The notes beneath the pieces are model-generated. The model ran no database searches. It saw nothing but the letters and a program-made list of their open reading frames with translations, and was not told where the DNA came from. From IMG/VR virus record IMGVR_UViG_2778261353_000008: 43,754 nucleotides of DNA, one strand, 5' to 3'. Numbering within the stretch: position 1 is the first letter of the stretch; each line of letters starts with the position of its first letter. The position numbers and the translations under genes are program-made. The stretch is from a virus (Duplodnaviria; Heunggongvirae; Uroviricota; Caudoviricetes). This document shows, one piece after another, positions 1 to 43,754 of the stretch.

Positions 1-1164
1 TTACGCCTTCTTTATATCCTCCATAATTCCAGAGTGGGACATATTTGGGACATTATCACCAAAAATGTCGTCTATTTTCCTCGCATGCTCTGTCAAATGA
101 TTAGGCGCAAGGTGAGCATACCTACGAACCATTTCTATGGACTCCCATCCGCCCATTTCCTGAAGCACTGATAATGGGACGCCTGACTGAATCAGCCAGC
201 TTGCCCAGGTGTGTCTGAGGTCATGGAAACGGAAATCTTCAATTCCTGCACGACGACAAGCTGATAGCCATGATGTCTTGCTGTCGATGCGCATCTTCCT
301 GACCGCAGGCGTTGATGTTCCATCTGCTCGCTTAGCCGCCTTGGTATGTACAAACACCCATTTGTGATGCTTGCCTATTTGATCACGCAACACTTTACAG
401 GCGGTATCGTTCAGCGCCACACCAATGGCGCGGTTTGATTTGCTCTCTTCTGGATTCACCCAGGCAACTCGTCGCTGCATGTCGATTTGTTGCCATTCCA
501 GATTTATGATGTTCGACTTTCTCAGACCAGTTGCCAGCGCAAACTTGACGACAGATTTCAGTGGTTCGGGGCACTCATCAATAAGGCGTTTTGCTTCCTC
601 CTTTTCCAGCCATCTGACTCGCTTGTTTCTGACCGCTGGTATCTTGATGACAGGCGCTTTTTCCAGCCACTTCCAGTCGCGTTCTGCAGCACGGAGAATG
701 GCCTTTATCATGGCAAGATGCTTTGCCTTTGTCTGAGTTGATACTGGCTTTGGTTCATAAACAGGCAGTTCTTTACCTTTCCTGATGGCGGCCTGAACTT
801 TCTGTTTCCATATTTCTTTCGTCTTTCTGTTATGCATTCTGCTTACAGCAGAGTAAATCTTTGCCTCCGAGATATCTTTAAGCCTTATACCCTCAAAATG
901 TTCAAGCCAGAACTCAATCCGGCTTTTATCTGAATCGAGAGATTTTTTATCAGCTTTTTCCTCAAGCCATCTTAGGCAGGCCTCTTCAAAAGTGACATCA
1001 GGTAAATCCCCTAGCTTTTCTACTCGCCAGAGTTCTGCTTTTCGCTTGTCGTGCAACTCCTGAGCTTGCCGCTTGTCCTTTGTGCCAAGAGATTCCTTAA
1101 TTCGTTTCCCGCCCGGGAGCGAATACGAGGCATACCATATTTCATTTCTGCGGAAGAGTGACAT
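1..1164 (-). CDS. int: Phage integrase, tyrosine recombinase (P22/lambdoid Int-like)
   Basis: 387-aa ORF; N-terminus [35 protein letters not shown] resembles P22-type Int; C-terminal catalytic region with R..HDLRHT..RRYAHL; first gene of the prophage arm, overlapped by xis. Confidence 0.93.
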
Positions 1165-4988: not shown

Positions 4989-5121
4989 TTTTTGGGACTC
5001 CTGGCTGATTAAGTATGTCGATAAGGCGTTTCCATCCGTCACGTAATTTACGGGTGATTCGTTCAAGTAAAGATTCGGAAGGGCAGCCAGCAACAGGCCA
5101 CCCTGCAATGGCATATTGCAT
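4957..5121 (-). CDS. cIII: CIII (FtsH inhibitor stabilising CII), 54 aa
   Basis: Hand-translated from reverse complement: [54 protein letters not shown]; overlaps kil as in lambda; absent from ORF track (<60 aa). Confidence 0.88.
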   Translation of the reverse strand: MQYAIAGWPVAGCPSESLLERITRKLRDGWKRLIDILNQPGVPKNGSNTYGYPD

Positions 5122-5193
5122 GGTGTGCTCCTTATTTATACATAACGAAAAACGCCTCGAGTGAAGCGTTATTGGTATGCGGTAACGCCGCGC

Positions 5194-7479: not shown

Positions 7480-8382
7480 TTATGACTCACTTTGTTCTGA
7501 GAAGGGGAATGAAGACAGAACAAGAACCTGTCGATTTGTCTTATACATGTATTCATTAATGACGTTGTGCAGATTTTTTAACGCCATGCTAAAATCTTTG
7601 TCGTATGTAAAGTCTTCTACTTTAATTCTTAAGTCATTGATAAGAGTATTTATTCCTATCGTTCTTCCGTGAGAATGCCACTTTCCGTTGTCACTAAGAG
7701 CGGTAGCGATCATTTTAGCTCTCGCTTCTTTTTCCCTCTTGGAAACTAGCTTTCCTCGTTTTGTGTTACCTTGATGAACCGTCCACTCTCTGAATTTATA
7801 CTCTACAAGCCACTTCTTAAGCAAGTCTATTGATAGCTCTCTGGCTTGCTCGTATCTCCTTAAGTGCGCAAGATCTAACTGACTAAGCATCATTAGTTCA
7901 GCTTGGGTAATGGTTCCTTCTCTGGATTTAGTAATCATTTCTTCAACTTTATCAAGGTATCCCAAAGCAGGAACCCATTTACCGTCAGAGGATTGCACTT
8001 GAGGGTCAATGGGGCCTAATGAAGAAGCATAGTTCATGTAAATTTTATCTCCAGACATACACCATATTGTGCCTGCCGACATGGCCATATCTGGAATGAT
8101 AAAATATACCTCTTGATAGAAATGCCTTGTAATTTCTACCATTTTTTCCACAGACTCAACAGAGCCACCATTTGTATTGAGTATAATAACTAGAAATCTA
8201 TTGGTACGACTGTTAGCCATCTCCCCAATAGCCTCAAGTTTTGGTTGGTAAACTTCTTTTGACCATGGAAAGATACCACCGTAGTACGCTATGACGTCGC
8301 AGCTTGGGAAAAAGTTATTTTTAAATTGCTCTAACTGCCAAGAAATGTATGTTTCTAGTGTTGAATCAAGATTTTGGCTCAT
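7480..8382 (-). CDS. Clp-fold serine-peptidase-like protein (S49/SDH-family-like) in the rexAB slot
   Basis: 300 aa; motifs VIILNTNGGSVESVEKMVEI, IIPDMAMSAGT (putative Ser nucleophile), SSLGPIDPQ; immediately downstream of cI on the same strand; AT-rich; family assignment is from motif memory only. Confidence 0.6.
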   Translation of the reverse strand: MSQNLDSTLETYISWQLEQFKNNFFPSCDVIAYYGGIFPWSKEVYQPKLEAIGEMANSRTNRFLVIILNTNGGSVESVEKMVEITRHFYQEVYFIIPDMAMSAGTIWCMSGDKIYMNYASSLGPIDPQVQSSDGKWVPALGYLDKVEEMITKSREGTITQAELMMLSQLDLAHLRRYEQARELSIDLLKKWLVEYKFREWTVHQGNTKRGKLVSKREKEARAKMIATALSDNGKWHSHGRTIGINTLINDLRIKVEDFTYDKDFSMALKNLHNVINEYMYKTNRQVLVLSSFPFSEQSES

Positions 8383-13919: not shown

Positions 13920-14056
13920 TGTTTGAGTTTAATATGGCAGAACTTCTTCGCCACCGCTGGGGGCGTCTGCGCTTATATCGTTTCCCCGGTTCTGTTTTGA
14001 CCGATTACCGAATACTGAAGAATTACGCCAAAACACTGACAGGAGCAGGAGTATGA
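13916..14056 (+). CDS. YlcG-like 46-aa protein
   Basis: Hand-translated [46 protein letters not shown]; start overlaps rusA stop; same size and rusA-to-Q position as DLP12 ylcG. Confidence 0.45.
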
Positions 14057-14141
14057 AGTCAGAGATAACAATCAACTAATACTGTTTTGTTGATTTTTGC
14101 TTGTAATTGGCGTTCTGGTCTGAGTTTTGTGGAGTAAGTTG

Positions 14142-14519
14142 ATGCGTGATATTCAGATGGTTCTTGAGCGTTGGGGAGCGTGGGCGGCTAATAATCATGA
14201 AGATGTGACCTGGTCGTCCATTGCCGCCGGTTTTAAGGGATTAATTCCTTCAAAAGTAAAATCTCGCCCACAATGTTGTGACGATGACGCGATGATCATT
14301 TGCGGGTGCATGGCCCGTCTGAAAAAGAACAACAGCGATTTGCATGATTTATTGGTGGACTATTATGTCGGCGGCATGACTTTTATGGCGCTTGCACGTA
14401 AGCATGGGCGATCTGATTGTTGGGTTGGCAGGATGCTTCAGAAAGCTGAGGGCGTAGTGGAGGGTATGCTGATGGTGTTGGATCTCCGATTGGAGATGGA
14501 TGCTGATTGTTCGAAATAA
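14142..14519 (+). CDS. Q: Late-gene antiterminator Q (non-lambda Q family, DLP12/phage-21-like size)
   Basis: ORF 14127..14519 trimmed to ATG after GGAG RBS ([31 protein letters not shown]...); 125 aa; positioned just upstream of a terminator and the lysis region. Confidence 0.75.
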
Positions 14520-14619
14520 TTAAAGGAAAAGTTGCTGTCTGATTGTCATTAGTCTAACATTTTAAATGTTGGAATCGCAACGTAGTTATTATCATATAAC
14601 AGCTTGTTTCCTGATTTAG

Positions 14620-14648
14620 CCAGCCTCCCCAAAGGCTGGTCTTTTTCT
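14620..14648 (+). terminator. tR'-like rho-independent terminator downstream of Q
   Basis: CCAGCCT / AGGCTGG stem with CCCCAA loop followed by TCTTTTTCT. Confidence 0.6.
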
Positions 14649-14674
14649 AATAAGTATTATTTCGGGTAGGGATT

Positions 14675-15199
14675 TTATTGTTTAACCCATAATAATTCAT
14701 TGACATTGAATCCCAACTTTTGAGCGGTTCGCACATAGTCTGCTTTTACTTTATCTGGAATAGTTGGGGTCCTTGCCAGAATCCATAGGTATTCTCTGTT
14801 CGGACCACTGACAAGAGCATACTTATACTCATCATCCAGTTTGATTACATTATAGCCACCATAGAAGGGGCCAAAAAACGAAACCTTCAATGCTGCAGTT
14901 TTAGTATCTCCAGTAAAGTATGCTTTACCTTCGCTCTCGCTCCATTTATTTTTCGTTGGATCGTATCCACGGTTAAGTACACGAATCCCTCCGTCGTTCC
15001 GTTTTCCATAAGTAGCGCTGACCTGTTCCAGACCACGTTCGAACCGGTTCTCGAGGCGAGCTATTTCATACCATTTTCCGAGGTAGCGGTTGGCGTCAAA
15101 ATTTGTAATCGGCTGCACACCTTTAGGTGGTGTCGGGGCCTTACATGCTATAAGAGTGAAAGAGAGTGCAATGCCAGTCAACACAGGCCATAACTTCAT
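14675..15199 (-). CDS. blc: Blc-like bacterial lipocalin (outer-membrane lipoprotein)
   Basis: 174 aa; lipoprotein signal with lipobox LIAC; strong similarity to E. coli Blc as I recall it (NFDANRYLGKWYEIARLENRFERGLEQVSATY...YFTG...AALKVSFFGPFYGGYNVI...YLWILARTP). Confidence 0.85.
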   Translation of the reverse strand: MKLWPVLTGIALSFTLIACKAPTPPKGVQPITNFDANRYLGKWYEIARLENRFERGLEQVSATYGKRNDGGIRVLNRGYDPTKNKWSESEGKAYFTGDTKTAALKVSFFGPFYGGYNVIKLDDEYKYALVSGPNREYLWILARTPTIPDKVKADYVRTAQKLGFNVNELLWVKQ

Positions 15200-15391
15200 A
15201 ATAAATCCTGTACTTTTGATAGTTGAGAGTAAGTATGAAAGATAGATGATTACGACCGATCACTTAAAGAACTTTCATACTATATTAGGAATAGTCCATA
15301 ACAGAAAAATTGTCAGTGATGACGCCAGAAAGGCAATTTATTCCGTGCACTACACAGTTTATGTGTTAATGAATTAGTCAAGGGGGAGAAT

Positions 15392-16351
15392 ATGATAAAA
15401 AAACCTGTGATTGGAATCAGCGGTTGTTTGGCCGGTTCTGCTGTTCGTTTTGATGGTGGTCACAAAAGAGCTGACTTTTTAATGGACAAATTAGTGGAAT
15501 GGGTAACATTCAGACCAGTATGTCCGGAAATGGCTATAGGGCTGCCAGTTCCGCGTCCTGCTCTACGTCTTGTGCGCTCGATGCAAGGAAATATACGGAT
15601 GTGTTTCAGCCACGACCAGAATGAGGATGTGACAGAGAGAATGACAGAGTTTAGTCGTTCTTATATGGACAAATTAAAGGATGTATCGGGGTTTGTGGTT
15701 TGTGCTAAATCTCCCAGCTGTGGCATGGAGCGCGTGCGTGTCTATGATGAAAATGGTAATCGAGGTCGTAAAGATGGAGTGGGACTATTTACGAGCACTT
15801 TGATGGAAAAGTTTTCCTGGCTACCGGTTGAAGAGGATGGGCGATTACATGATCCAGTGCTTCGTGAGAATTTTGTTGAAAGAGTTTTTGCTTTGCATGA
15901 GCTCAATCACCTTTACAAGGAGAAATTATCAAGAAGAGAGTTATTAGCTTTTCATAGTCGTTATAAGCTTCAGTTGTTGGCGCATAGTCAGGCAGGCTAT
16001 AAAGATATGGGACCATTTGTGGCTGCAATACACGAGTGGGCGGACCTTGAATCATACTTTGAGGTGTATCGTGATAAGCTGATGGCGATTCTCAGAAAAC
16101 CTGCATCACGTAAAAATCACACGAATGTGCTGATGCATATACAGGGGTATTTTAGTAACTACTTAAGTACACGCCAGCGTAAAGAGTTGAGCGAGGTTAT
16201 ACTTAACTATCGTTCTGGCACATTACCTCTTCTTGCGCCGTTGACTCTGCTGAAGCATTATCTGGGTGAGTATCCTAATGATTACTTGCTTACACAGAAT
16301 TACTTCGATCCCTATCCGGACGAACTGGCTCTAAGACTGATGGTAAATTAA
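15392..16351 (+). CDS. DUF523/DUF1722 fusion protein (TudS-like N-terminal domain, YbgA-like C-terminal domain)
   Basis: 319 aa; N-terminal Cys in IGISGCLAG, PVCPE, AKSPSCGME consistent with Fe-S-binding DUF523/TudS-type proteins; C-terminal half YbgA-like; assignment from motif memory. Confidence 0.6.
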   Translation: MIKKPVIGISGCLAGSAVRFDGGHKRADFLMDKLVEWVTFRPVCPEMAIGLPVPRPALRLVRSMQGNIRMCFSHDQNEDVTERMTEFSRSYMDKLKDVSGFVVCAKSPSCGMERVRVYDENGNRGRKDGVGLFTSTLMEKFSWLPVEEDGRLHDPVLRENFVERVFALHELNHLYKEKLSRRELLAFHSRYKLQLLAHSQAGYKDMGPFVAAIHEWADLESYFEVYRDKLMAILRKPASRKNHTNVLMHIQGYFSNYLSTRQRKELSEVILNYRSGTLPLLAPLTLLKHYLGEYPNDYLLTQNYFDPYPDELALRLMVN

Positions 16352-16702
16352 TTGTATGCGATATCATCCAAAAGGATGAGTTCCTGCATGCAGGATATTT
16401 ACAATCGTAAAAACTACACTATGATACCCAGAGTGTCAGTTTGTATAAAAACTCTGTTTACGCTGAAGAAACAATTGAGATGCAACTTAAAGTTGGTAAA
16501 CATGCCAGTCAAAATATATAATATTATGATTCCACGCAGCTATATATAATATAACAGATTGGTTTAATAATTTGTCTTTGTGAGTTAAATACATAATTTT
16601 ATACTTGTGATGCAATGAAATTTTCCTTATTGTTGAACTGGCGAATATTGATTTTCCACCTATACTTACCTGGTGTAACCCCAATGATATCAGGTGGATA
16701 AT

Positions 16703-17434
16703 ATGCCATACATATGTTCTATCATTTTGGTGTTGAACTCGTTTGATGTCCGAATTGGTAAAGAAGATATTTTGTTTAAAAAAGGAAGTGCTGTTCTCAT
16801 TGATTACAATTTAAAAGATTTTTTTTCATCAAATATAGATCATGTAATGATCGTAGATGTTGAAGAGAAAACAGTTAATGATTTCTTTAAAAGCAACACA
16901 CTCTCACCTTTTTCTGTAAGAAGGTTTTATCCGGCATACTTGATGGTGGAATGTGAAGATTTTTCATTGTTAAAGAACTTGATTGCATGCTTGAATTGTG
17001 ATGGCAGAACTGTGGATTTTGTTAGAAATCAAATATCACTTGCATGTCTTGCTATCTTATCTTCAGAGAAAATAGTGCAAAGTTTTTTATTTGGATGTCT
17101 TAATAGTTTAGGAAGTAAAGTTAAGGCTATTATTCACACGGATATATCTGCAGCATGGAGACTTTGTGATATATCTTCAAGACTGTATCTGAGTGAAAGT
17201 CTGTTAAAAAGAAAATTAAAGCACGAAGGCTTATCATTTAGTAAGTTAATTCTTGAAGAGCGAATGGTGATGGCGGAAAGGTTATTAAGCTACAATTTAT
17301 ATTCTGTTGGAAAAGTTGCTGAGATATGCGGTTATGAAAACACGTCATATTTTGTAAGTGTTTTCAGAAGGTATTTTGGTGTTCCTCCCCATCAATATTC
17401 ATCAAGATTTTTTTTAGAAAAAGACATGATGTAA
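16703..17434 (+). CDS. AraC-family transcriptional regulator (AppY-like)
   Basis: ORF 16694..17434 trimmed to first ATG; C-terminal AraC HTH (LSESLLKRKLKHEGLSFSKLILEERMVMAERLL...VAEICGYENTSYFVSVFRRYFGVPPHQY); N-terminus MPYICSIILVLNSFD resembles DLP12 AppY; AT-rich gene. Confidence 0.8.
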   Translation: MPYICSIILVLNSFDVRIGKEDILFKKGSAVLIDYNLKDFFSSNIDHVMIVDVEEKTVNDFFKSNTLSPFSVRRFYPAYLMVECEDFSLLKNLIACLNCDGRTVDFVRNQISLACLAILSSEKIVQSFLFGCLNSLGSKVKAIIHTDISAAWRLCDISSRLYLSESLLKRKLKHEGLSFSKLILEERMVMAERLLSYNLYSVGKVAEICGYENTSYFVSVFRRYFGVPPHQYSSRFFLEKDMM

Positions 17435-17621
17435 CGTGATGCGTTTTAATGATTTTGTAATTTTCGTATTTGATAATTGTATGATGCTTTCAGCTACGCC
17501 AGAATAATCGCGGCGTTTTTCTTTTTGAATAGATGTTCAAGCCTTACGCTAATGTAACTTCTATACCTTTCCTCTTCGTTCCGAACCGTGTACACCATCC
17601 GTTATTTGCGGAGGTGAGGCT

Positions 17622-17837
17622 ATGAAATCCATGGATAAGTTAACAACGGGTGTCGCCTATGGCACCTCAGCAGGTAGTGCCGGTTACTGGTTTTTACAGC
17701 TGCTCGATAAAGTCACGCCCTCACAGTGGGCAGCAATAGGTGTGCTGGGTAGCCTGGTATTTGGCCTGCTGACGTACCTGACAAACCTTTATTTCAAGAT
17801 TAAAGAAGATAAGCGCAAGGCTGCGAGAGGTGAATAA
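17622..17837 (+). CDS. S: Holin, class II pinholin (phage 21 S21-like), dual-start motif
   Basis: 71 aa [45 protein letters not shown]... closely matches S21. Confidence 0.9.
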
Positions 17838-18334
17838 TGCCTCCATCATTACGAAAAGCCGTTGCTGCTGCTATTGGTGGCGGAGCAATTGCTATAGCAT
17901 CAGTGTTAATCACTGGCCCAAGTGGTAACGATGGTCTGGAAGGTGTCAGCTACATACCATACAAAGATATCGTTGGCGTATGGACTGTATGTCACGGGCA
18001 TACAGGAAAAGACATCATTCCCGGTAAAACGTATACCGAAGCAGAATGCAAAGCCCTCCTGAATAAAGACCTTGCCACGGTAGCCAGACAAATTAACCCG
18101 TACATCAAAGTCGATATACCGGAAACAACGCGCGGCGCTCTTTACTCGTTCGTCTATAACGTGGGCGCAGGCAATTTCAGAACATCTACTCTTCTTCGCA
18201 AAATAAACCAGGGCGATATCAAGGGCGCATGTGACCAGCTACGTCGCTGGGCATACGCTGGCGGTAAGCAATGGAAAGGCCTGATGACTCGTCGTGAGAT
18301 TGAGCGTGAGGTCTGTTTGTGGGGGCAACAATGA
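17837..18334 (+). CDS. R: SAR endolysin (lysozyme, R21-like)
   Basis: 165 aa; N-terminal signal-anchor-release segment ([20 protein letters not shown]) followed by lysozyme domain; ATG overlaps holin stop. Confidence 0.9.
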
Positions 18335-18823: not shown

Positions 18824-19117
18824 TTATTGTGAGCAATACACACGCGCTTCCAGCGGAGTATAAATGCCTAAAGTAATAAAACCGAGAAATCCATTTACGA
18901 ATGTTTGCTGGGTTTCTGTTTTAACAACATTTTCTGCGCCGCCACAAATTTTGGCTGCATCAACAGTTTTCTCCTGTCCAATTCCCGAAACGAAGAAATG
19001 ATGGGTGATGGTTTCCTTTGGTGTTACTGCTGTCGGTTTGTTTCCAACAGTAAACGTCTGTTGAGCACATCCTGTAATAAGCATTGCCAGAGCGGCAGAA
19101 AACAACATTTTTTTCAT
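18824..19117 (-). CDS. bor: Bor lipoprotein (Iss-like serum-resistance factor)
   Basis: ORF 18824..19165 trimmed to MKKMLFSAALAMLITGCAQQTFTVGNKPTAVTPKETITHHFFVSGIGQEKTVDAAKICGGAENVVKTETQQTFVNG..., 97 aa, matching lambda Bor. Confidence 0.9.
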   Translation of the reverse strand: MKKMLFSAALAMLITGCAQQTFTVGNKPTAVTPKETITHHFFVSGIGQEKTVDAAKICGGAENVVKTETQQTFVNGFLGFITLGIYTPLEARVYCSQ

Positions 19118-19478
19118 CTTATTATCCTGCATTGTTAAAAACGGCAGAATCCTATGTGACAACAATTAAACGATAGTTAAATGGATTGATGAAAATTAAA
19201 ACTATATAGGTGGATGCTCAGCCTATTGGAGGAGGGGGGGGCACTCAGAATCCTGTGGAATGAAATAAACCGCTCTATCTGTCCATTACCCTTTTAGCTG
19301 CGCTGTATCGTCGCCGTATTCCCGCATTAACCATGACCGTAGCCCGACGGGGAATTCCTTCTGCGTGAGTGTGCGGGAATAATCAAAAACGATGCACACC
19401 GGGTTTTACTGTGCTGACAGACGCAGGGTTACCCTCATAGTCGCTTTTCCGGTGCGATGGTGGAAGAAACCGGGATGT

Positions 19479-30420: not shown

Positions 30421-32974
30421 ACCGGTAGGCGATCTGGTCGTTGATTTAAGTCTGGATGCGGCCAGATTTGACGAGCAGATGGCCAGAGTCAGGCATCATT
30501 TTTCCGGTACGGAAACTGATGCGAAAAAAACAGCGGCAGTCGTTGAACAGTCGCTGAGCCGACAGGCGCTGGCTGCACAGAAAGCGGGGATTTCCGTCGG
30601 GCAGTATAAAGCCGCCATGCGTATGCTGCCTGCACAGTTCACCGACGTGGCCACGCAGCTTGCAGGCGGGCAAAGCCCGTGGCTGATCCTGCTGCAACAG
30701 GGTGGTCAGGTTAAGGACTCCTTCGGCGGGATGATCCCCATGTTCCGGGGGCTTGCCGGTGCGATCACCCTGCCGATGGTCGGGGCCACCTCGCTGGCGG
30801 TGGCGACCGGTGCGCTGGCGTATGCCTGGTATCAGGGTAACTCAACCCTGTCCGATTTCAACAAAACGCTGGTCCTTTCCGGTAATCAGTCGGGTCTGAC
30901 GGCAGATCGTATGCTGGTCCTGTCCAGAGCCGGGCAGGCGGCAGGGCTGACGTTTAACCAGACCAGCGAGTCACTCAGTGCACTGGTTAAGGCGGGGGTA
31001 AGCGGTGAGGCTCAGATTGCGTCCATCAGCCAGAGTGTGGCGCGTTTCTCTTCTGCATCCGGTGTGGAGGTGGACAAGGTCGCTGAAGCCTTCGGGAAGC
31101 TGACCACTGACCCGACGTCGGGGCTGACGGCGATGGCGCGCCAGTTCCATAACGTGACGGCGGAGCAGATTGCGTATGTTGCTCAGTTGCAGCGTTCCGG
31201 CGATGAAGCCGGGGCATTGCAGGCGGCGAACGAAGCCGCAACGAAAGGGTTTGATGACCAGACCCGCCGCCTGAAAGAGAACATGGGCACGCTGGAGACC
31301 TGGGCAGACAGGACAGCGCGGGCATTCAAATCCATGTGGGATGCGGTGCTGGATATTGGTCGTCCTGATACCGCGCAGGAGATGCTGATTAAGGCAGAGG
31401 CTGCGTTTAAGAAAGCAGACGACATCTGGAATCTGCGCAAGGATGATTATTTTGTTAACGATGAAGCGCGGGCGCGTTACTGGGATGATCGTGAAAAGGC
31501 CCGTCTTGCGCTTGAAGCCGCCCGAAAGAAGGCTGAGCAGCAGACTCAACAGGACAAAAATGCGCAGCAGCAGAGCGATACCGAAGCGTCACGGCTGAAA
31601 TATACCGAAGAGGCGCAGAAGGCTTACGAACGGCTGCAGACGCCGCTGGAGAAATATACCGCCCGTCAGGAAGAACTGAACAAGGCACTGAAAGACGGGA
31701 AAATCCTGCAGGCGGATTACAACACGCTGATGGCGGCGGCGAAAAAGGATTATGAAGCGACGCTGAAAAAGCCGAAACAGTCCGGCGTGAAGGTGTCTGC
31801 GGGCGATCGTCAGGAAGACAGTGCTCATGCTGCCCTGCTGACGCTTCAGGCAGAACTCCGGACGCTGGAGAAGCATGCCGGAGCGAATGAGAAAATCAGC
31901 CAGCAGCGCCGGGATTTGTGGAAGGCGGAGAGTCAGTTCGCGGTACTGGAGGAGGCGGCGCAACGTCGCCAGCTGTCTGCACAGGAGAAATCCCTGCTGG
32001 CGCATAAAGATGAGACGCTGGAGTACAAACGCCAGCTGGCTGCACTTGGCGACAAGGTTACGTATCAGGAGCGCCTGAACGCGCTGGCGCAGCAGGCGGA
32101 TAAATTCGCACAGCAGCAACGGGCAAAACGGGCCGCCATTGATGCGAAAAGCCGGGGGCTGACTGACCGGCAGGCAGAACGGGAAGCCACGGAACAGCGC
32201 CTGAAGGAACAGTATGGCGATAATCCGCTGGCGCTGAATAACGTCATGTCAGAGCAGAAAAAGACCTGGGCGGCTGAAGACCAGCTTCGCGGGAGCTGGA
32301 TGGCAGGCCTGAAGTCCGGCTGGAGTGAGTGGGAAGAGAGCGCCACGGACAGTATGTCGCAGGTTAAAAGTGCAGCCACGCAGACCTTTGATGGTATTGC
32401 ACAGAATATGGCGGCGATGCTGACCGGCAGTGAGCAGAACTGGCGCAGCTTCACCCGTTCCGTGCTGTCCATGATGACAGAAATTCTGCTTAAGCAGGCA
32501 ATGGTGGGGATTGTCGGGAGTATCGGCAGCGCCATTGGCGGTGCTGCCAGTGGTGGAGCATCCGCGTCAGGCGGTACAGCCATTCAGGCCGCTGCGGCGA
32601 AATTCCATTTTGCGACCGGGGGATTTACGGGAACCGGCGGCAAATATGAGCCAGCGGGGATTGTTCACCGTGGTGAATTTGTCTTCACGAAGGAGGCAAC
32701 CAGCCGGATTGGTGTCGGCAACCTGTACCGCCTGATGCGCGGCTATGCCACCGGCGGTTATGTCGGTACACCGGGCAGCATGGCAGACAGCCGGTCGCAG
32801 GCGTCCGGGACGTTTGAGCAGAATAACCATGTGGTGATTAACAACGACGGCACGAACGGGCAGATAGGTCCGGCTGCTCTGAAGGCGGTGTATGACATGG
32901 CCCGCAAGGGTGCCCGTGATGAAATTCAGACACAGATGCGTGATGGTGGCCTGTTCTCCGGAGGTGGACGATGA
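30413..32974 (+). CDS. H: Tape measure protein H
   Basis: 853 aa matching lambda gpH. Confidence 0.96.
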   Translation: MAEPVGDLVVDLSLDAARFDEQMARVRHHFSGTETDAKKTAAVVEQSLSRQALAAQKAGISVGQYKAAMRMLPAQFTDVATQLAGGQSPWLILLQQGGQVKDSFGGMIPMFRGLAGAITLPMVGATSLAVATGALAYAWYQGNSTLSDFNKTLVLSGNQSGLTADRMLVLSRAGQAAGLTFNQTSESLSALVKAGVSGEAQIASISQSVARFSSASGVEVDKVAEAFGKLTTDPTSGLTAMARQFHNVTAEQIAYVAQLQRSGDEAGALQAANEAATKGFDDQTRRLKENMGTLETWADRTARAFKSMWDAVLDIGRPDTAQEMLIKAEAAFKKADDIWNLRKDDYFVNDEARARYWDDREKARLALEAARKKAEQQTQQDKNAQQQSDTEASRLKYTEEAQKAYERLQTPLEKYTARQEELNKALKDGKILQADYNTLMAAAKKDYEATLKKPKQSGVKVSAGDRQEDSAHAALLTLQAELRTLEKHAGANEKISQQRRDLWKAESQFAVLEEAAQRRQLSAQEKSLLAHKDETLEYKRQLAALGDKVTYQERLNALAQQADKFAQQQRAKRAAIDAKSRGLTDRQAEREATEQRLKEQYGDNPLALNNVMSEQKKTWAAEDQLRGSWMAGLKSGWSEWEESATDSMSQVKSAATQTFDGIAQNMAAMLTGSEQNWRSFTRSVLSMMTEILLKQAMVGIVGSIGSAIGGAASGGASASGGTAIQAAAAKFHFATGGFTGTGGKYEPAGIVHRGEFVFTKEATSRIGVGNLYRLMRGYATGGYVGTPGSMADSRSQASGTFEQNNHVVINNDGTNGQIGPAALKAVYDMARKGARDEIQTQMRDGGLFSGGGR

Positions 32975-38922: not shown

Positions 38923-39522
38923 ATGCGTAAATTATGTGCTGTTATTTTGTCCGCAGTAGTCTGGCAGGTCGCCGCTGCTACGCCAGCGAGTGCAGCAGAA
39001 CATCAGTCCACGCTGAGCGCGGGGTATCTCCATGCCTCGACGAACGTTCCCGGTAGTGATGATCTGAACGGGATTAACGTGAAATACCGTTATGAGTTTA
39101 CGGACGCGCTGGGGCTGGTGACGTCATTCAGCTATGCAGGAGACAAGAATCGCCAGCTGACCCGTTACAGCGATACCCGCTGGCATGAAGATTCCGTTCG
39201 TAACCGCTGGTTCAGCGTAATGGCGGGGCCGTCTGTGCGCGTGAATGAATGGTTCAGCGCGTATGCGATGGCGGGTGTAGCTTACAGCCGTGTGTCGACT
39301 TTCTCCGGGGATTATCTTCGCGTAACTGACAACAAGGGGAAAAAGCACGATGTGCTGACCGGAAGTGATGACGGTCGCCACAGCAACACGTCTCTGGCGT
39401 GGGGGGCTGGCGTGCAGTTTAACCCGACCGAATCCGTGGCCATTGATATTGCTTATGAAGGCTCCGGCAGTGGTGACTGGCGCACTGACGGTTTCATCGT
39501 GGGTGTCGGTTATAAATTCTGA
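38923..39522 (+). CDS. lom: Lom/Ail-family outer membrane protein
   Basis: 199 aa with signal peptide and C-terminal beta-barrel ending ...GSGSGDWRTDGFIVGVGYKF as in lambda Lom; same position as lambda lom but divergent sequence. Confidence 0.85.
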   Translation: MRKLCAVILSAVVWQVAAATPASAAEHQSTLSAGYLHASTNVPGSDDLNGINVKYRYEFTDALGLVTSFSYAGDKNRQLTRYSDTRWHEDSVRNRWFSVMAGPSVRVNEWFSAYAMAGVAYSRVSTFSGDYLRVTDNKGKKHDVLTGSDDGRHSNTSLAWGAGVQFNPTESVAIDIAYEGSGSGDWRTDGFIVGVGYKF

Positions 39523-39580: not shown

Positions 39581-42500
39581 GTGAATATGGCAGTAAAGAT
39601 TTCAGGTGTACTGAAAGACGGTGCAGGTAAACCGGTACAGAACTGTACAATCCAGCTGAAAGCAAAACGTAACAGCACCACGGTGGTGGTGAACACGGTG
39701 GCCTCAGAAAATCCGGATGAAGCCGGGCGTTACAGCATGGACGTTGAGTACGGTCAGTACAGCGTTATTCTGTTGGTGGAAGGATTCCCGCCGTCACATG
39801 CCGGGACCATCACCGTGTATGAAGATTCCCGACCCGGTACGCTGAATGATTTTCTCGGTGCCATGACGGAGGATGATGCCCGTCCGGAGGCTCTGCGCCG
39901 TTTTGAACTGATGGTGGAAGAGGTGGCGCGTAACGCGTCCGCGGTGGCACAGAACACGGCAGCCGCGAAGAAATCAGCCAGCGATGCCAGCACATCAGCC
40001 CGTGAGGCGGCAACCCATGCGACTGATGCTGCAGATTCAGCACGTGCAGCCAGCACGTCAGCCGGACAGGCCGCTTCGTCGGCTCAGTCAGCGTCTTCCA
40101 GCGCAGGAACGGCATCAACAAAGGCCACTGAAGCCTCAAAAAGTGCTGCCGCTGCAGAGTCCTCAAAAAGCGCGGCGGCTACCAGTGCCGGTGCGGCGAA
40201 AACGTCAGAAACGAATGCGGCAGCGTCACAACAATCAGCAGCCACTTCTGCATCCACCGCGACCACGAAAGCGTCAGAAGCTGCCACCTCAGCCCGGGAT
40301 GCGTCGGCCTCAAAAGAGGCAGCGAAATCATCAGAAACGAACGCATCATCAAGTGCCAGTAGTGCAGCTTCCTCGGCAACGGCGGCAGGAAATTCCGCGA
40401 AGGCCGCAAAAACGTCTGAGACGAATGCAGATAACAGCGCACAGGCGGCAGCAGACTCACAAACTGCATCAGCAAACTCCGCGACAGCAGCCAAAAAATC
40501 AGAAACCAACGCGAAAAATAGCGAGGCAGCAGCAAAGAGCAGCGAAACCAACGCTAAAGCCAGCGAAACTAATGCTAAATCCAGTGAAACAAACGCGGCG
40601 AAATCTGCGGCGGACGCACTTAATTATCGCAACCAGGCGCAAGTAATTGTTGGCGATAATATCGGTCTTGGTGAAGTTGCCATGACCTGCACTGATATCT
40701 CTGTTGAGCCATCAGGTTATATTGGATTTGTCAGGATTTACATCTCAGCGAAAGGTTATCCATCAGTAGCGTCTAGTGCCGGTGATAATCTTATTTCTGG
40801 TTATATAGTTAGATCAGAAGTGTCAACAAAAAGATATTCCGGTCTATTTGTTGGTTCAGATACAAAATCATTGTATTCGTACATTTACAGCCAAAGTTCT
40901 GGCCCGCAATGGATACGTCATACCCGCAGAGATGAATTAAGCCGCTTTGGTCAAAATGAATCAACAACTCGTATGTATGGTCCAACTGGTGATCGTTTCT
41001 TTGAAATCCATACTAACGGGAGTTGGGGAGTTTATGATTCTTCTTCTGGACAATGGTCTCCGTTAGGTTTAGCCCAGGGCGGTACTGGTGGAAGAACTAT
41101 CGAGCAAGCACGTGCGAACTTGCGGGTAATGTATGAGCAAAAAGCTGGCCTTGCTAATACTGACCTAAACACCCTTACCGGTGAATATTCTGGTTTCTAT
41201 CAACAACCAACGAGCGCTTACGCAACAGAAGAATTAAATTACCCAATCGGTCTGGCGGGCGCTTTAATAGTGCTCCAAACGAGAGCCAACACTGCTTCTT
41301 CCTGCGTTCAGGTGTACTACCCTTATAATAATCCGGGAATTACTTATAGACGAATATATGAAGGAGGAAGCGGTACCTGGTCTGAATGGAAGAGAGATGT
41401 ATCAACAGAAAGGGTTGAAGAGGGAAAAGAAACAACTTACGTATATTCTACGTATTCTTCAGGCGCACCACGCTTACAGGTTTCCAAATCTGGTTTGTGG
41501 GGTTGTCATAATGGCACTGGCTGGTTGCCATTAGCTGTTGGGCAAGGAGGTACAGGTGCGACAACAGTAGAAGATGCGCGAAACAACTTAAGTCTTGGCG
41601 AAAGTAGCGCAGTTAAATTTAAAAACCTTACTTTAACCGAAGCGCTCGACACGACATTAGGACTGCTTACAAAAACAGGACGAGACTGGAACACGCAGCA
41701 TACTGATAACATTAATAAATTTATACCAATTGCAGGCAGTACAAACGGCCCGGCAGGTTCTATGGTTCTTGGCGGCATTCATGTTCAATTTAGTAAAAAT
41801 TATGCTGTGCAGTTCGGAGGCCGCAATTCCGGTTTTTGGGGAAGAACAATTGAAAATGGAACGACGCAGGAATGGAAGAAATTACTAACAGTAGACGATC
41901 TCAATTCATCTACCGATCTTGCTGTCAGGTCATTAACCACATCTAACCCGGTAAAATCTGGCGGAGGGCGAATTGATGTCCTTGGAAGCACGTCAGACTA
42001 TAGCAAAATGGATTGCTTTGTACGTGGGTTTGATAGCACCGGTAATTCTCTCGCGTGGGCGTTGGGTTCATCAGTCGGCGTAAGTAAGATGCTGTCGCTA
42101 AAAAATTTCTTTAGCGGAGCTGAGATACTGTTAAATGGTAATGACGGCGCGGTTCAACTCAAAACAGGTGCTGTTAACGGGGCTAAAGCGCAGGCGCTCA
42201 CTATCAACAAGGATGAGGTTAACTCAACTGTTGATTTAACTCTTACAAAACAAACAGGGACTGGAAATCGTTTTGTTTTACAGAACTTAGGTAATACAGA
42301 ACTATCATTTGCCGCAAAAGTATGGGGATCAAGTGATCGACAAAACGTTTTTGAGGTTGGAACGTCTGCTGCGTATCTGTTTTATGCGCAAAAAACGTCA
42401 GCAGGCCAGTTGTTTGATGTAAATGGCGCTATTAATTGCACAACGCTGAATCAGTCATCAGACCGCGACCTTAAAGACGATATTCTCGTTATCAGCGACG

Positions 42501-42892
42501 CGACGAAAGCAATCCGTAAAATGAACGGATACACCTACACGCTCAGGGAAAACGGGATGCCTTATGCTGGCATTATTGCACAGGAAGTAATGGAGGCGAT
42601 ACCAGAAGCTGTGGGATCGTTTACTCATTACGGTGAAGAGTTGCAGGGACCAACGGTTGACGGCAATGAATTACGTGAAGAAACACGTTATCTGAATGTT
42701 GACTACGCCGCCGTGACGGGGTTACTTGTTCAGGTCGCCCGTGAAACAGATGGTCGCGTTACCGCGCTGGAAGAGGAAAACATAACGCTACGTAAAAATC
42801 TGGCAACAGCAGGCACCCGGATCAGCACTCTGGAAAATCAGGTAAGCGAACTGGTTGCACTTGTCGGGCAGTTAACAGGAAGCGAACATTGA
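39581..42892 (+). CDS. stf: Side tail fibre with lambda-Stf-like N-terminus, Ala/Ser-rich repeat shaft and C-terminal intramolecular chaperone (peptidase S74-like) domain
   Basis: 1103 aa; N-terminal ~200 aa match lambda Stf; C-terminus contains ...NQSSDRDLKDDI... followed by NGYTYTLRENGMPYAGIIAQEV...YLNVDYAAVTGLLVQ, typical of self-cleaving IMC domains (endosialidase / T5 pb1 type). Confidence 0.85.
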   Translation: MNMAVKISGVLKDGAGKPVQNCTIQLKAKRNSTTVVVNTVASENPDEAGRYSMDVEYGQYSVILLVEGFPPSHAGTITVYEDSRPGTLNDFLGAMTEDDARPEALRRFELMVEEVARNASAVAQNTAAAKKSASDASTSAREAATHATDAADSARAASTSAGQAASSAQSASSSAGTASTKATEASKSAAAAESSKSAAATSAGAAKTSETNAAASQQSAATSASTATTKASEAATSARDASASKEAAKSSETNASSSASSAASSATAAGNSAKAAKTSETNADNSAQAAADSQTASANSATAAKKSETNAKNSEAAAKSSETNAKASETNAKSSETNAAKSAADALNYRNQAQVIVGDNIGLGEVAMTCTDISVEPSGYIGFVRIYISAKGYPSVASSAGDNLISGYIVRSEVSTKRYSGLFVGSDTKSLYSYIYSQSSGPQWIRHTRRDELSRFGQNESTTRMYGPTGDRFFEIHTNGSWGVYDSSSGQWSPLGLAQGGTGGRTIEQARANLRVMYEQKAGLANTDLNTLTGEYSGFYQQPTSAYATEELNYPIGLAGALIVLQTRANTASSCVQVYYPYNNPGITYRRIYEGGSGTWSEWKRDVSTERVEEGKETTYVYSTYSSGAPRLQVSKSGLWGCHNGTGWLPLAVGQGGTGATTVEDARNNLSLGESSAVKFKNLTLTEALDTTLGLLTKTGRDWNTQHTDNINKFIPIAGSTNGPAGSMVLGGIHVQFSKNYAVQFGGRNSGFWGRTIENGTTQEWKKLLTVDDLNSSTDLAVRSLTTSNPVKSGGGRIDVLGSTSDYSKMDCFVRGFDSTGNSLAWALGSSVGVSKMLSLKNFFSGAEILLNGNDGAVQLKTGAVNGAKAQALTINKDEVNSTVDLTLTKQTGTGNRFVLQNLGNTELSFAAKVWGSSDRQNVFEVGTSAAYLFYAQKTSAGQLFDVNGAINCTTLNQSSDRDLKDDILVISDATKAIRKMNGYTYTLRENGMPYAGIIAQEVMEAIPEAVGSFTHYGEELQGPTVDGNELREETRYLNVDYAAVTGLLVQVARETDGRVTALEEENITLRKNLATAGTRISTLENQVSELVALVGQLTGSEH
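40195..40600 (+). repeat. Tandem degenerate repeats encoding K(S/T)SETNA units in the stf shaft
   Basis: Repeated ...aaa(a/t)c(a/g)tc(a/t)ga(a/g)ac(g/c)aa(c/t)gc... units read directly; the same repeat class is present in lambda Stf. Confidence 0.7.
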
Positions 42893-43163: not shown

Positions 43164-43754
43164 TTATATGTCAGGTGTCTGAAGTTTTGCTTTGGCTCTT
43201 AAAATGGTTTGCCGCGAGGTTTTGAATTCCCGGGCAATGGCACTTATACTTACACCTGACTTAATTCGTTCGAATACCACCTGTTTCTGTTCTTCATTTA
43301 ACACAGGTGGTCGACCAAAACGTTTCCCTGCGCCGCGGGCTCTTACTATCCCGGAATGAGTGCGTTCAAGTAAAAGGTCTCGTTCAAATTCAGCGACTGC
43401 TGAAATTACTTGCATCATCATTTTTCCTGTTGGACTGGTCAGGTCAATGCCACCCAATGCTAAGCAATGCACTCTGATACCTGTTTCGGTCAGTTGTTCC
43501 ACTGTTTTCCTGATATCCATTGCATTACAACCAAGGCGATCCAGTTTTGTCACAATCAATTGATCACCACATTTCAGGCGAGCAAGCAACCGGTTAAAAC
43601 CAGGACGCTCACTGGTTGCTGCTGAGCCGCTAATGTGTTCTTCGATTATTTGCTGAGGTTTGATTTTAAAACCTGCACTTTCGATTTCCCGGCGTTGATT
43701 TTCGGTGGTCTGATCCAGCGTTGATATCCGACAGTAAGCAAAAATTCGAGACAT
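43164..43754 (-). CDS. pin: Serine recombinase / DNA invertase (Pin/Hin/Gin family)
   Basis: 196 aa; N-terminal resolvase catalytic domain ([17 protein letters not shown], catalytic Ser) and C-terminal HTH; start codon is the last 3 nt of the window; typical position next to tail-fibre genes. Confidence 0.88.

Follow-up and report, generated by a model that had tools for sequence, protein, structure and literature searches.

The RudS family comprises proteins in which a TudS domain is fused to DUF1722; they are tRNA 4-thiouridine desulfidases that contain an iron-sulfur cluster (Jamontas et al., NAR 2024, PMC11417400). Overexpression of RudS lowers the 4-thiouridine (s4U) content of E. coli tRNA, and the three cluster cysteines are required; overexpression of the six orthologs assayed cut tRNA s4U by 4.7- to 26-fold, and the in vivo data for the family all come from overexpression (PMC11417400). 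The demonstrated reaction is the conversion of tRNA s4U to uridine; 2-thiocytidine was unaltered, 2-thiouridine was not measurable, and none of the RudS proteins supported growth on 2-thiouracil (PMC11417400). Neither stand-alone TudS nor YbgA affected tRNA s4U (PMC11417400). The characterised prototype is RudS_KT of Pseudomonas putida (PP_0741); its DUF1722 domain binds the tRNA anticodon arm, and the overexpressed enzyme reduces the UVA-induced growth delay of E. coli (PMC11417400). Chromosomal rudS genes are located in light-responsive operons, that of RudS_KT being a light-regulated phrB-litR-rudS operon (PMC11417400).

The same work mentions ten viral RudS sequences. One of them, RudS_vir (gp66 of Escherichia phage 1H12), was cloned and assayed among the six orthologs, and its cluster ligands are listed as Cys12, Cys44 and Cys110, the positions also listed for RudS_ST (ORF319) of Salmonella, a chromosomal Enterobacterales RudS (PMC11417400). 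At comparable protein levels, RudS_vir desulfidated tRNA less than RudS_ST did (PMC11417400). E. coli itself is said to lack RudS, which has been offered as the explanation for species differences in the UVA response (PMC11417400; also a 2026 review). No literature on phage or prophage RudS was found besides Jamontas et al. 2024.

The locus described here lies in a window of 43,754 nucleotides (the whole stretch of DNA that was analysed), which is a complete lambda-like prophage running from an integrase gene (1-1164, minus strand) to a DNA invertase gene (43164-43754, minus strand). The window encodes CI, N, O/P-type replication proteins, RusA, Q, holin/lysozyme/Rz and lambda-like head and tail proteins, and it holds no tRNA genes. 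An identical rudS is present in a lambda-like prophage adjoining ybhC in E. coli strain 361; with the integrase, CI, N, Q, lysis and head/tail genes of the window, this bears out the description of the gene as prophage-borne that had been made in a first-pass annotation of the DNA.

The rudS gene (15392-16351, plus strand) belongs to a cassette of ~3 kb, consisting of blc, rudS and a gene for an AraC-like regulator, that is inserted between Q and the holin gene. On its left is the gene for an antiterminator Q of the DLP12 QuuD type (14142-14519, plus strand; Pfam Phage_antitermQ, E 2.5e-51), and on its right the first lysis gene (17622-17837, plus strand), an ORF that is called holin/EssD in matching phages and prophages. 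Likeness to cassette-less phages ends at ~14501 and resumes at ~17591-17607, so that positions 14502-17600 are cassette-specific; the GC content of the cassette is 32-44%, against 51% for the whole window. The blc gene (14675-15199, minus strand), which is divergent from rudS, encodes a predicted outer-membrane lipocalin lipoprotein (Pfam Lipocalin_2; NCBIfam Blc, 316 bits, above the cut-off of 267). The third gene (16703-17434, plus strand; 32% GC) encodes a YdeO/GadX-like regulator of the AraC family (Pfam HTH_18/HTH_AraC), for which YdeO ranks first among the NCBIfam models with 127 bits, far under the cut-off of 348. In 12 isolated phages, as in prophages inserted at different sites, the order Q, blc, rudS, AraC-like gene, holin is kept; it is the order found in the lambda-like phage 1H12, and the cassette is always accompanied by Q and the lysis genes. 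The same slot, which directly follows Q and precedes the holin gene, holds the porin gene nmpC in DLP12, and in Stx phages it is occupied by stx. Here, in place of a porin or a toxin, the cargo comprises a predicted tRNA de-modifying enzyme, a lipocalin and a regulator.

The rudS gene is real and intact: an ATG-started, uninterrupted ORF of 319 amino acids, with a strong ribosome-binding site (AAGGGGGAG) 5 nt 5' of its start. The first-pass annotation had recognised a DUF523-type cysteine pattern fused to DUF1722 and had proposed a profile search as a check; in that search both families matched within the one ORF over their full profiles. PF04463 (‘2-thiouracil desulfurase’, once DUF523) covers amino acids 7-149 (15410-15838; profile positions 1-141 of 141, E 4.5e-40, 137.4 bits against a cut-off of 34.7), and PF08349 (DUF1722) covers amino acids 192-309 (15965-16318; profile positions 1-117 of 117, E 5.8e-41, 139.9 bits against a cut-off of 22.5). 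The GCLAG, VCPE and SPSCG motifs of the cysteine pattern are all present, as G11-C12-L13-A14-G15, V43-C44-P45-E46 and S107-P108-S109-C110-G111, and C12, C44 and C110 are predicted to be the [4Fe-4S] ligands. E46 of the CPE motif, R55 of the PRP motif and S107 and S109 of the SPSC motif are the predicted catalytic residues.

With 190.8 bits over amino acids 160-315, the NCBIfam YbgA model PRK10167 (cut-off 237) falls short, and so does the NCBIfam TudS-related model, with only 17.9 of the 130 bits required. The PHROGs family phrog_3275 covers 319 of the 319 residues and is listed as ‘unknown function’, and the PGAP label for the gene is ‘YbgA family protein’. RudS, Blc and the AraC-like protein gave zero matches to the PADLOC-DB models. 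No LexA box was found near rudS, the only CTGT-N8-ACAG in the window (at 32465, inside the tail genes) being at chance level, and an Rfam search gave no RNA element near rudS; its only match in the window, a lambda cIII thermoregulator, lies elsewhere.

The closest characterised relative is RudS_vir, which is also 319 amino acids long and is identical to the window protein at 298 positions (93%) without gaps, with the same Cys12, Cys44 and Cys110. None of the 21 amino-acid differences is catalytic, and the two genes differ by 7.8% at the nucleotide level. The window protein is a member of the already described RudS family, and the enzyme itself is not new; with the family defined and a 93%-identical phage ortholog assayed in 2024, the useful part of the present analysis is the genomic context.

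The predicted catalytic and cluster residues (C12, C44, E46, R55, S107, S109 and C110) are invariant in 88 distinct homologs, 23 from the phage clade and 65 chromosomal, as is the block of S239-R240-K241 and H243-T244-N245 in the DUF1722 domain. Across the family 130 positions are invariant, and the phage clade carries 17 clade-specific substitutions. RudS_KT shares the TudS plus DUF1722 architecture, and its C17, C49, C114, E51, R60, S111 and S113 correspond to the residues above by conserved motif and by the numbering in Table 1 of PMC11417400, as opposed to a direct alignment; its G1 loop has Y25/N26 where all enterobacterial and phage sequences have F20/D21. Among PDB sequences the sole match was the crystallised TudS 6z92, whose homologous catalytic domain aligns with amino acids 6-67, including the Cys, CPE and PRP motifs. 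Stand-alone TudS proteins (~150-170 amino acids) lack DUF1722, unlike the two-domain window protein, and act on free thiouracil and 4-thio-UMP. E. coli K-12 YbgA shares DUF1722 with amino acids 160-315 but lacks the catalytic domain that makes up the N-terminal part of the window protein. An AlphaFold2 model, built from a shallow, low-diversity input of 23 sequences at 70-76% identity, was of poor quality, with a mean pLDDT of 56 and a pTM of 0.49.

Chromosomal RudS proteins of Enterobacterales (Enterobacter, Citrobacter and Klebsiella) are 66-76% identical to the window protein and have the same length, domain order and catalytic residues, whereas the phage clade forms a long separate branch and is AT-richer (43% GC). 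On the chromosome, rudS follows genes for a MerR-family regulator and a transthyretin-like protein or ends a CFA-synthase/DUF3833 operon; the phage copy has neither arrangement and, unlike the chromosomal copies, is followed by an AraC-like gene. The feature that Enterobacter-type loci do share with the phage is the divergent blc partner. Of the 62 chromosomal loci that representative genomes of other species yielded, 36 have blc on the minus strand, divergent from merR-like, transthyretin-like and rudS genes on the plus strand, and in two Citrobacter genomes blc (minus) lies directly beside rudS (plus), as in the phage. Phage Blc is 82% identical to the Enterobacter Blc encoded beside merR-ttr-rudS and 80% identical to that of C. 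sedlakii, but only 60% identical to E. coli K-12 Blc. From these sequence comparisons the blc/rudS pair looks to have been captured from an Enterobacter/Citrobacter-type chromosomal locus, with the MerR-type regulator left behind. The genes that precede rudS in Citrobacter, an unannotated one of 175 aa and a DUF3833 gene, were also considered as relatives of phage blc and were rejected, as they showed no similarity to it; the Enterobacter-type blc is the real link. The stretch between blc and rudS in the phage could not be aligned with its Citrobacter counterparts. The neighbours of phage rudS are blc and the AraC-like gene, with no MerR-type gene at the locus, and neither a light-responsive MerR/LitR regulator nor a photolyase or photo-oxidative-stress operon was found beside it.

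The gene is widespread in E. coli, being found in 1136 of 5426 complete genomes. The first-pass annotation had called such an enzyme unusual as phage cargo, a view that does not hold given this frequency and the viral sequences already on record. Statements that E. coli lacks RudS are likewise contradicted, as ~21% of the complete genomes carry rudS on lambda-like prophages; prophage content may therefore underlie variation among strains in the tRNA s4U level, the UVA growth delay and the ppGpp burst. Purifying selection acts on the gene (dN/dS 0.11 and dS 0.29 between the window and 1H12 alleles). An intact 319-aa rudS was present in all 85 phage-clade loci, in a sample biased towards full-length matches, and blc was intact in 84 of them; the AraC-like gene was intact in 63 and frameshifted or truncated in 14, and its annotation in strains 361 and 54214 is that of a pseudogene.

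These observations make it very probable that the locus encodes an s4U eraser of the RudS family within a captured Q-to-holin cargo cassette of a lambda-like prophage, with a putative role under UVA or at induction. The first-pass annotation had suggested thiolated host tRNA (s2U or s4U) or thiolated nucleobases as substrates; tRNA s4U stands, by membership of the family (PMC11417400), and s2U and 2-thiouracil are left unsupported by the unaltered 2-thiocytidine, the unmeasurable 2-thiouridine and the failure of RudS to sustain growth on 2-thiouracil. RudS would turn s4U8/9 in host tRNA back into uridine. By analogy with TudS and RudS_KT, C12, C44 and C110 would hold the [4Fe-4S] cluster, the fourth iron of which would bind the s4U sulfur once the base has flipped out; R55, S107 and S109 would position E46, which would activate a water molecule for attack on C4, and the sulfur would exit via the cluster. 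The DUF1722 domain would grip the tRNA at the anticodon arm, as in RudS_KT.

The near-UV chromophore behind tRNA cross-linking, a stall in translation and a rise in ppGpp is s4U8. A low s4U content would therefore protect protein synthesis of the lysogen in sunlight. As rudS lies on the late-gene strand just past Q, with no terminator before the holin gene, strong transcription is also expected after prophage induction. It can be suggested, tentatively, that blc and rudS form a near-UV stress module of enterobacterial chromosomes that lost its MerR-type regulator, and that a temperate phage now sets the s4U level of host tRNA, the eraser serving to manipulate the host. If so, erasure of the s4U8 photosensor, whether in the lysogen or via Q-dependent late transcription, would remove the UVA growth delay and the stringent brake, and the sunlight response would be altered in about one-fifth of E. 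coli strains, including SOS, prophage induction and phage yield. A 1986 EMBO J paper reportedly linked the s4U-dependent growth delay to SOS expression.

The role of rudS might alternatively be mainly the phage's, a reading that is conceivable, though doubtful, and that is compatible with a benefit to the lysogen. The enzyme would then act as a late-operon helper after SOS or UV induction, its erasure of s4U sparing virion and lysis protein synthesis from UVA-triggered tRNA cross-linking, translation arrest and the stringent response; it might also reshape the tRNA pool via degradation of s4U-less tRNAs. The position of the gene favours this. A candidate late-promoter region lies at 14520-14650 (plus strand), where lambdoid architecture would place pR'/tR', and it includes a terminator-like hairpin (14619-14640) followed by a T-run; no other terminator-like site was found in 14000-17900, so that the one hairpin precedes the cassette genes and none separates them from the holin gene, and the post-Q region shows only patchy similarity to DLP12/434B. 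The constant company of Q and the lysis genes points the same way, and s4U loss is known to lower the levels of tRNA-Tyr and tRNA-Ser (PMC11417400; PMC13602947). In a separate Salmonella prophage lineage, RudS is encoded in the early-right (nin) region beside a LexA-boxed dinI, where it would also be expressed on induction.

Several features argue against a role mainly for the phage. The co-captured blc is antisense to late transcription, and its product, an outer-membrane lipoprotein, has no obvious use near lysis. The 192-nt divergent region between blc and rudS (15200-15391) has a mean column identity of 96% across four alleles, including that of 1H12, and this conservation suggests that the genes have their own promoters; probable promoters for both are predicted there, and the region holds only one sigma-70-like match, a weak one (TTGAGA-16-GATGAT at 15223-15250). 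A terminator of its own follows the Salmonella copy, like a self-contained cargo gene's, and the interval from late transcription to lysis may be too brief for a stable tRNA pool to be turned over. RudS has been gained independently by the Salmonella prophages. Co-capture of blc without the MerR-type regulator, the Q-to-holin slot and this separate acquisition provide a testable case of a tRNA eraser as either a fitness gift to the lysogen or an induction tool.

It is considerably less likely that the protein is a small-molecule enzyme like stand-alone TudS, desulfurating 4-thiouracil, 4-thiouridine or 4-thio-UMP released by tRNA/RNA turnover for salvage or detoxification. The catalytic domain is of the TudS type, and TudS enzymes recycle 4-thio-UMP (PMC10611767). 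Of the RudS proteins tested, RudS_vir moreover showed the shortest lag on 4-thiouracil, together with its lower tRNA activity relative to RudS_ST (PMC11417400). However, TudS rescued a uracil auxotroph and no RudS did, RudS_vir included, and thiouracils were not regarded as primary substrates by the authors; it was RudS_vir, not stand-alone TudS, that lowered tRNA s4U (PMC11417400). Retention of DUF1722 under purifying selection, with the invariant positions noted above, also counts against this reading.

That rudS is a functionless passenger in a hitch-hiking cassette is disfavoured by the present data and scarcely credible: public annotation assigns no function, roughly one locus in four shows decay of the adjoining AraC-like gene, and IS1 splits, or truncation shortens, a small number of E. 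coli copies, but the low dN/dS, the invariance of all catalytic residues, the intact ORF throughout the phage-clade sample (with its bias towards full-length matches), the retention of at least 80% of the gene in 1064 of the 1136 carrier genomes and the activity of the 93%-identical RudS_vir (PMC11417400) all speak against it. In 619 of these 1136 genomes the gene is at least 99% identical to the window allele, which is commoner in E. coli than that of 1H12.

The ORF at 15392-16351 (+) begins with ATG behind a strong ribosome-binding site and encodes 319 aa, as called in the first-pass annotation, which proposed a fusion of DUF523 and DUF1722 domains. An HMM search bore this out, with both Pfam domains matched over their whole profiles: PF04463 ('2-thiouracil desulfurase', formerly DUF523) at aa 7-149 (E 4.5e-40) and PF08349 (DUF1722) at aa 192-309 (E 5.8e-41). 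The three cysteine motifs noticed earlier are present as G11-C12-L13-A14-G15, V43-C44-P45-E46 and S107-P108-S109-C110-G111. Among solved structures, only that of the stand-alone desulfidase TudS (PDB 6z92) has detectable similarity in sequence; the alignment spans aa 6-67 and takes in the first two motifs together with the arginine of the PRP motif. The RudS family of tRNA 4-thiouridine (s4U) desulfidases is defined by the joining of a TudS domain to DUF1722 (Jamontas et al., Nucleic Acids Res 2024, PMC11417400), and all ligand and catalytic residues, as well as both domains, could be read directly from the window sequence.

Six RudS orthologs have been overexpressed in E. coli, lowering tRNA s4U 4.7- to 26-fold, and one of them, RudS_vir, is locus H3V29_gp66 of Escherichia phage 1H12, with ligands Cys12, Cys44 and Cys110 (PMC11417400). 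Phage 1H12 is among the DNA matches of the window, gp66 is annotated at the corresponding position, and the two proteins agree at 298 of 319 positions without gaps (93%). What the window carries is therefore an allele of an already named and assayed phage gene; the original observation is confirmed and its interpretation essentially correct, for a feature that was already known. In the same study, activity was abolished by most single mutations of the three cluster cysteines, catalysis by the Pseudomonas putida prototype RudS_KT required E51, S111, S113 and R60, its DUF1722 domain bound the anticodon region, and its overexpression reduced the UVA-induced growth delay (PMC11417400). Cluster-dependent conversion of tRNA s4U to U is a literature result for close relatives, which the window protein would share by analogy. 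The suggestion that the protein acts on thiolated substrates accordingly holds for s4U in host tRNA; its extension to s2U or 2-thiouracil is unsupported because no RudS allowed growth on 2-thiouracil and 2-thiocytidine was unaffected (PMC11417400). RudS_vir gave the shortest lag on 4-thiouracil, and its tRNA activity was present, at a lower level than that of Salmonella RudS_ST at comparable protein levels (PMC11417400); a mainly small-molecule function, like that of TudS, is considered less likely.

The window is a complete lambda-like prophage, with an integrase at its left end (1-1164, -) and, between its ends, CI, N, replication genes, RusA, Q, lysis genes and lambda-like head and tail genes. 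E. coli strain 361 has an identical rudS, within a prophage adjoining ybhC. The Q antiterminator gene (14142-14519, +) is followed by a terminator-like hairpin and T-run (14619-14650, +), the lipocalin gene blc (14675-15199, -), rudS, an AraC-family (AraC/YdeO-like) regulator gene (16703-17434, +) and the holin gene (from 17622). In phages of the same Q type without the cassette, the match stops at about 14501 and resumes at about 17591-17607; therefore about 3.1 kb is cassette-specific. Its genes have a GC content of 32-44%, against 51% for the window, and in DLP12/434B the corresponding slot is occupied by nmpC. The AraC-like gene (32% GC) has YdeO as its best NCBIfam match, at 127 bits, well short of the 348-bit cut-off. 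The 340 nt in front of it are AT-rich and contain the scan's two strongest promoter-like matches. About one cassette copy in four has this gene frameshifted, truncated or missing, with rudS and blc intact.

Outside phages, the closest proteins are the 319-aa RudS encoded on the chromosomes of Citrobacter (76%) and other Enterobacterales (66-75%), and in a neighbour-joining tree the phage clade falls outside chromosomal RudS on a long branch. No closer relative was found among species-representative genomes, except on two short contigs (L153 and L158) binned as 'Candidatus Nanosynbacter' (MAG D148_maxbin.008). On them lie Q, blc and the rudS start (99%), and rudS plus the AraC-like gene (94-99%); mis-binning of E. 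coli prophage DNA is almost certain. Two main contexts were seen at 62 chromosomal loci from representative genomes of other species. At about 15 (Citrobacter, Klebsiella, Pectobacterium and others) rudS ends an operon with SDR, amine oxidase, DUF1365, CFA synthase, DUF2878 and DUF3833 genes. At 36 (Enterobacter, Leclercia, Lelliottia and others) the order is blc (-), merR/mlrA-like (+), transthyretin-like (+) and rudS (+), and light-inducible control by MerR-family regulators at rudS loci has been suggested (PMC11417400). In Citrobacter sedlakii and Citrobacter sp. JGM124, blc (-) immediately adjoins rudS (+), which is the phage arrangement. Blc of the phage shares 82% identity with the rudS-linked Blc of Enterobacter and 80% with that of C. 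sedlakii, versus only 60% with the ampC-linked Blc of E. coli K-12. Together with the rudS-linked loci, these identities indicate that the phage blc/rudS is a captured chromosomal pair minus its MerR-type regulator; no counterpart of the AraC-like gene was found at the chromosomal loci. The blc-containing locus conserved in Enterobacter, Leclercia and Lelliottia (L111-L164, e.g. L123 1521-4460) places a lipocalin and a transthyretin/HIUase-like protein beside a tRNA s4U eraser. Two RudS copies occur in Citrobacter braakii ATCC 51113 (L101, L102), both with 76% identity to the window protein; one follows the CFA-synthase/DUF3833 operon and the other lacks the usual neighbours.

Six Salmonella prophage contigs of 38-44 kb (L094-L099, e.g. 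L095 4001-4960) encode a second RudS, which shares 74% identity with the window protein but 83-85% with chromosomal RudS. Its gene, equipped with a terminator of its own, sits in the early-right region with DUF977 on one side and a LexA-boxed dinI on the other. A RudS remnant (L006 5001-5960) adjoins ttcA beside integrase fragments in an assembly of Salmonella Derby. As the Salmonella lineage is separate from the window clade, sequence comparison indicates that temperate enterobacterial phages acquired RudS at least twice.

A 2024 paper (PMC11417400) and a 2026 review describe E. coli as without RudS. At ≥90% nucleotide identity, rudS is present in 1136 of 5426 complete E. coli genomes (21%), almost always chromosomally and in up to three copies per genome, so the statement is true of laboratory strains only. 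The full cassette occurs in 12 isolated phage genomes, and a close RudS relative is encoded on 127 IMG/VR contigs. The gene is labelled 'YbgA family protein' by PGAP and unknown function in PHROGs, and no paper on RudS in prophages was found; what remains of interest is its phage biology and the correction of the view that RudS is missing from E. coli. In E. coli YSP8-1 (NZ_CP037910.1 3125831-3127567) rudS is interrupted by an IS1, and its two parts are annotated as distinct genes, 'DUF523' and 'YbgA family'. A 403-aa RudS-GGDEF fusion from one E. coli record, on a single contig, is probably a rearrangement or assembly artefact.

The window and 1H12 alleles differ with dN 0.032 and dS 0.29 (dN/dS 0.11), which indicates purifying selection. 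C12, C44, E46, R55, S107, S109 and C110 are invariant among 23 distinct phage-clade and 65 distinct chromosomal proteins, and none of 17 substitutions peculiar to the phage clade is catalytic. At the 85 phage-clade loci retrieved, the 319-aa ORF is always intact, compared with 84 intact copies of Blc and just 63 of the AraC-like gene; the sample overstates RudS intactness because loci were picked by match quality to RudS; less biased is the retention of at least 80% of rudS in 1064 of the 1136 E. coli genomes with a match. That rudS is a functionless passenger is less likely.

Besides the post-Q hairpin, the scan from Q to holin found no terminator-like site. If the usual lambdoid arrangement applies, Q-modified late transcription would be expected to cover rudS; comparison did not pin down the position of a candidate late promoter. 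The 192-nt blc/rudS intergenic region has a mean column identity of 96% over four alleles, including that of 1H12, despite the synonymous divergence of 0.29, which suggests that promoters of blc and/or rudS are retained there; promoter matches in the region are weak. Expression in the lysogen is suggested by the antisense orientation of the co-captured blc and by the conservation of the intergenic region, and expression on induction by the Q-to-holin position and the early-right location of the Salmonella copy; these readings are not mutually exclusive. In the favoured reading of its biological role, which we infer, RudS would shield translation from near-UV cross-linking of s4U8 to C13; the lysogen would gain from this protection, and late transcription would reinforce it on induction.

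Elsewhere in the window, a 300-aa ClpP-like SDH-type serine protease homolog (7480-8382, -; PF01972, E 1.6e-10; phrog_11747, unknown function) is encoded immediately after the CI repressor gene and in the same direction, the slot that holds rexAB in lambda. It has no PADLOC match and could be a lysogen-expressed exclusion or defence gene. A Pin/Cin-type DNA invertase gene (43164-43754, -; phrog_125) at the right end adjoins a 1103-aa tail-fibre gene (39581-42892, +), and the two could form an invertible host-range switch. The sole Rfam family match is the lambda cIII thermoregulator RNA (5076-5134, -; 88.5 bits, E 2e-20). Classical lambda-type cargo is represented by Lom (38923-39522, +; Ail/Lom family, E 4e-120) and by a Bor/Iss-like lipoprotein downstream of the lysis genes (18824-19165, -).
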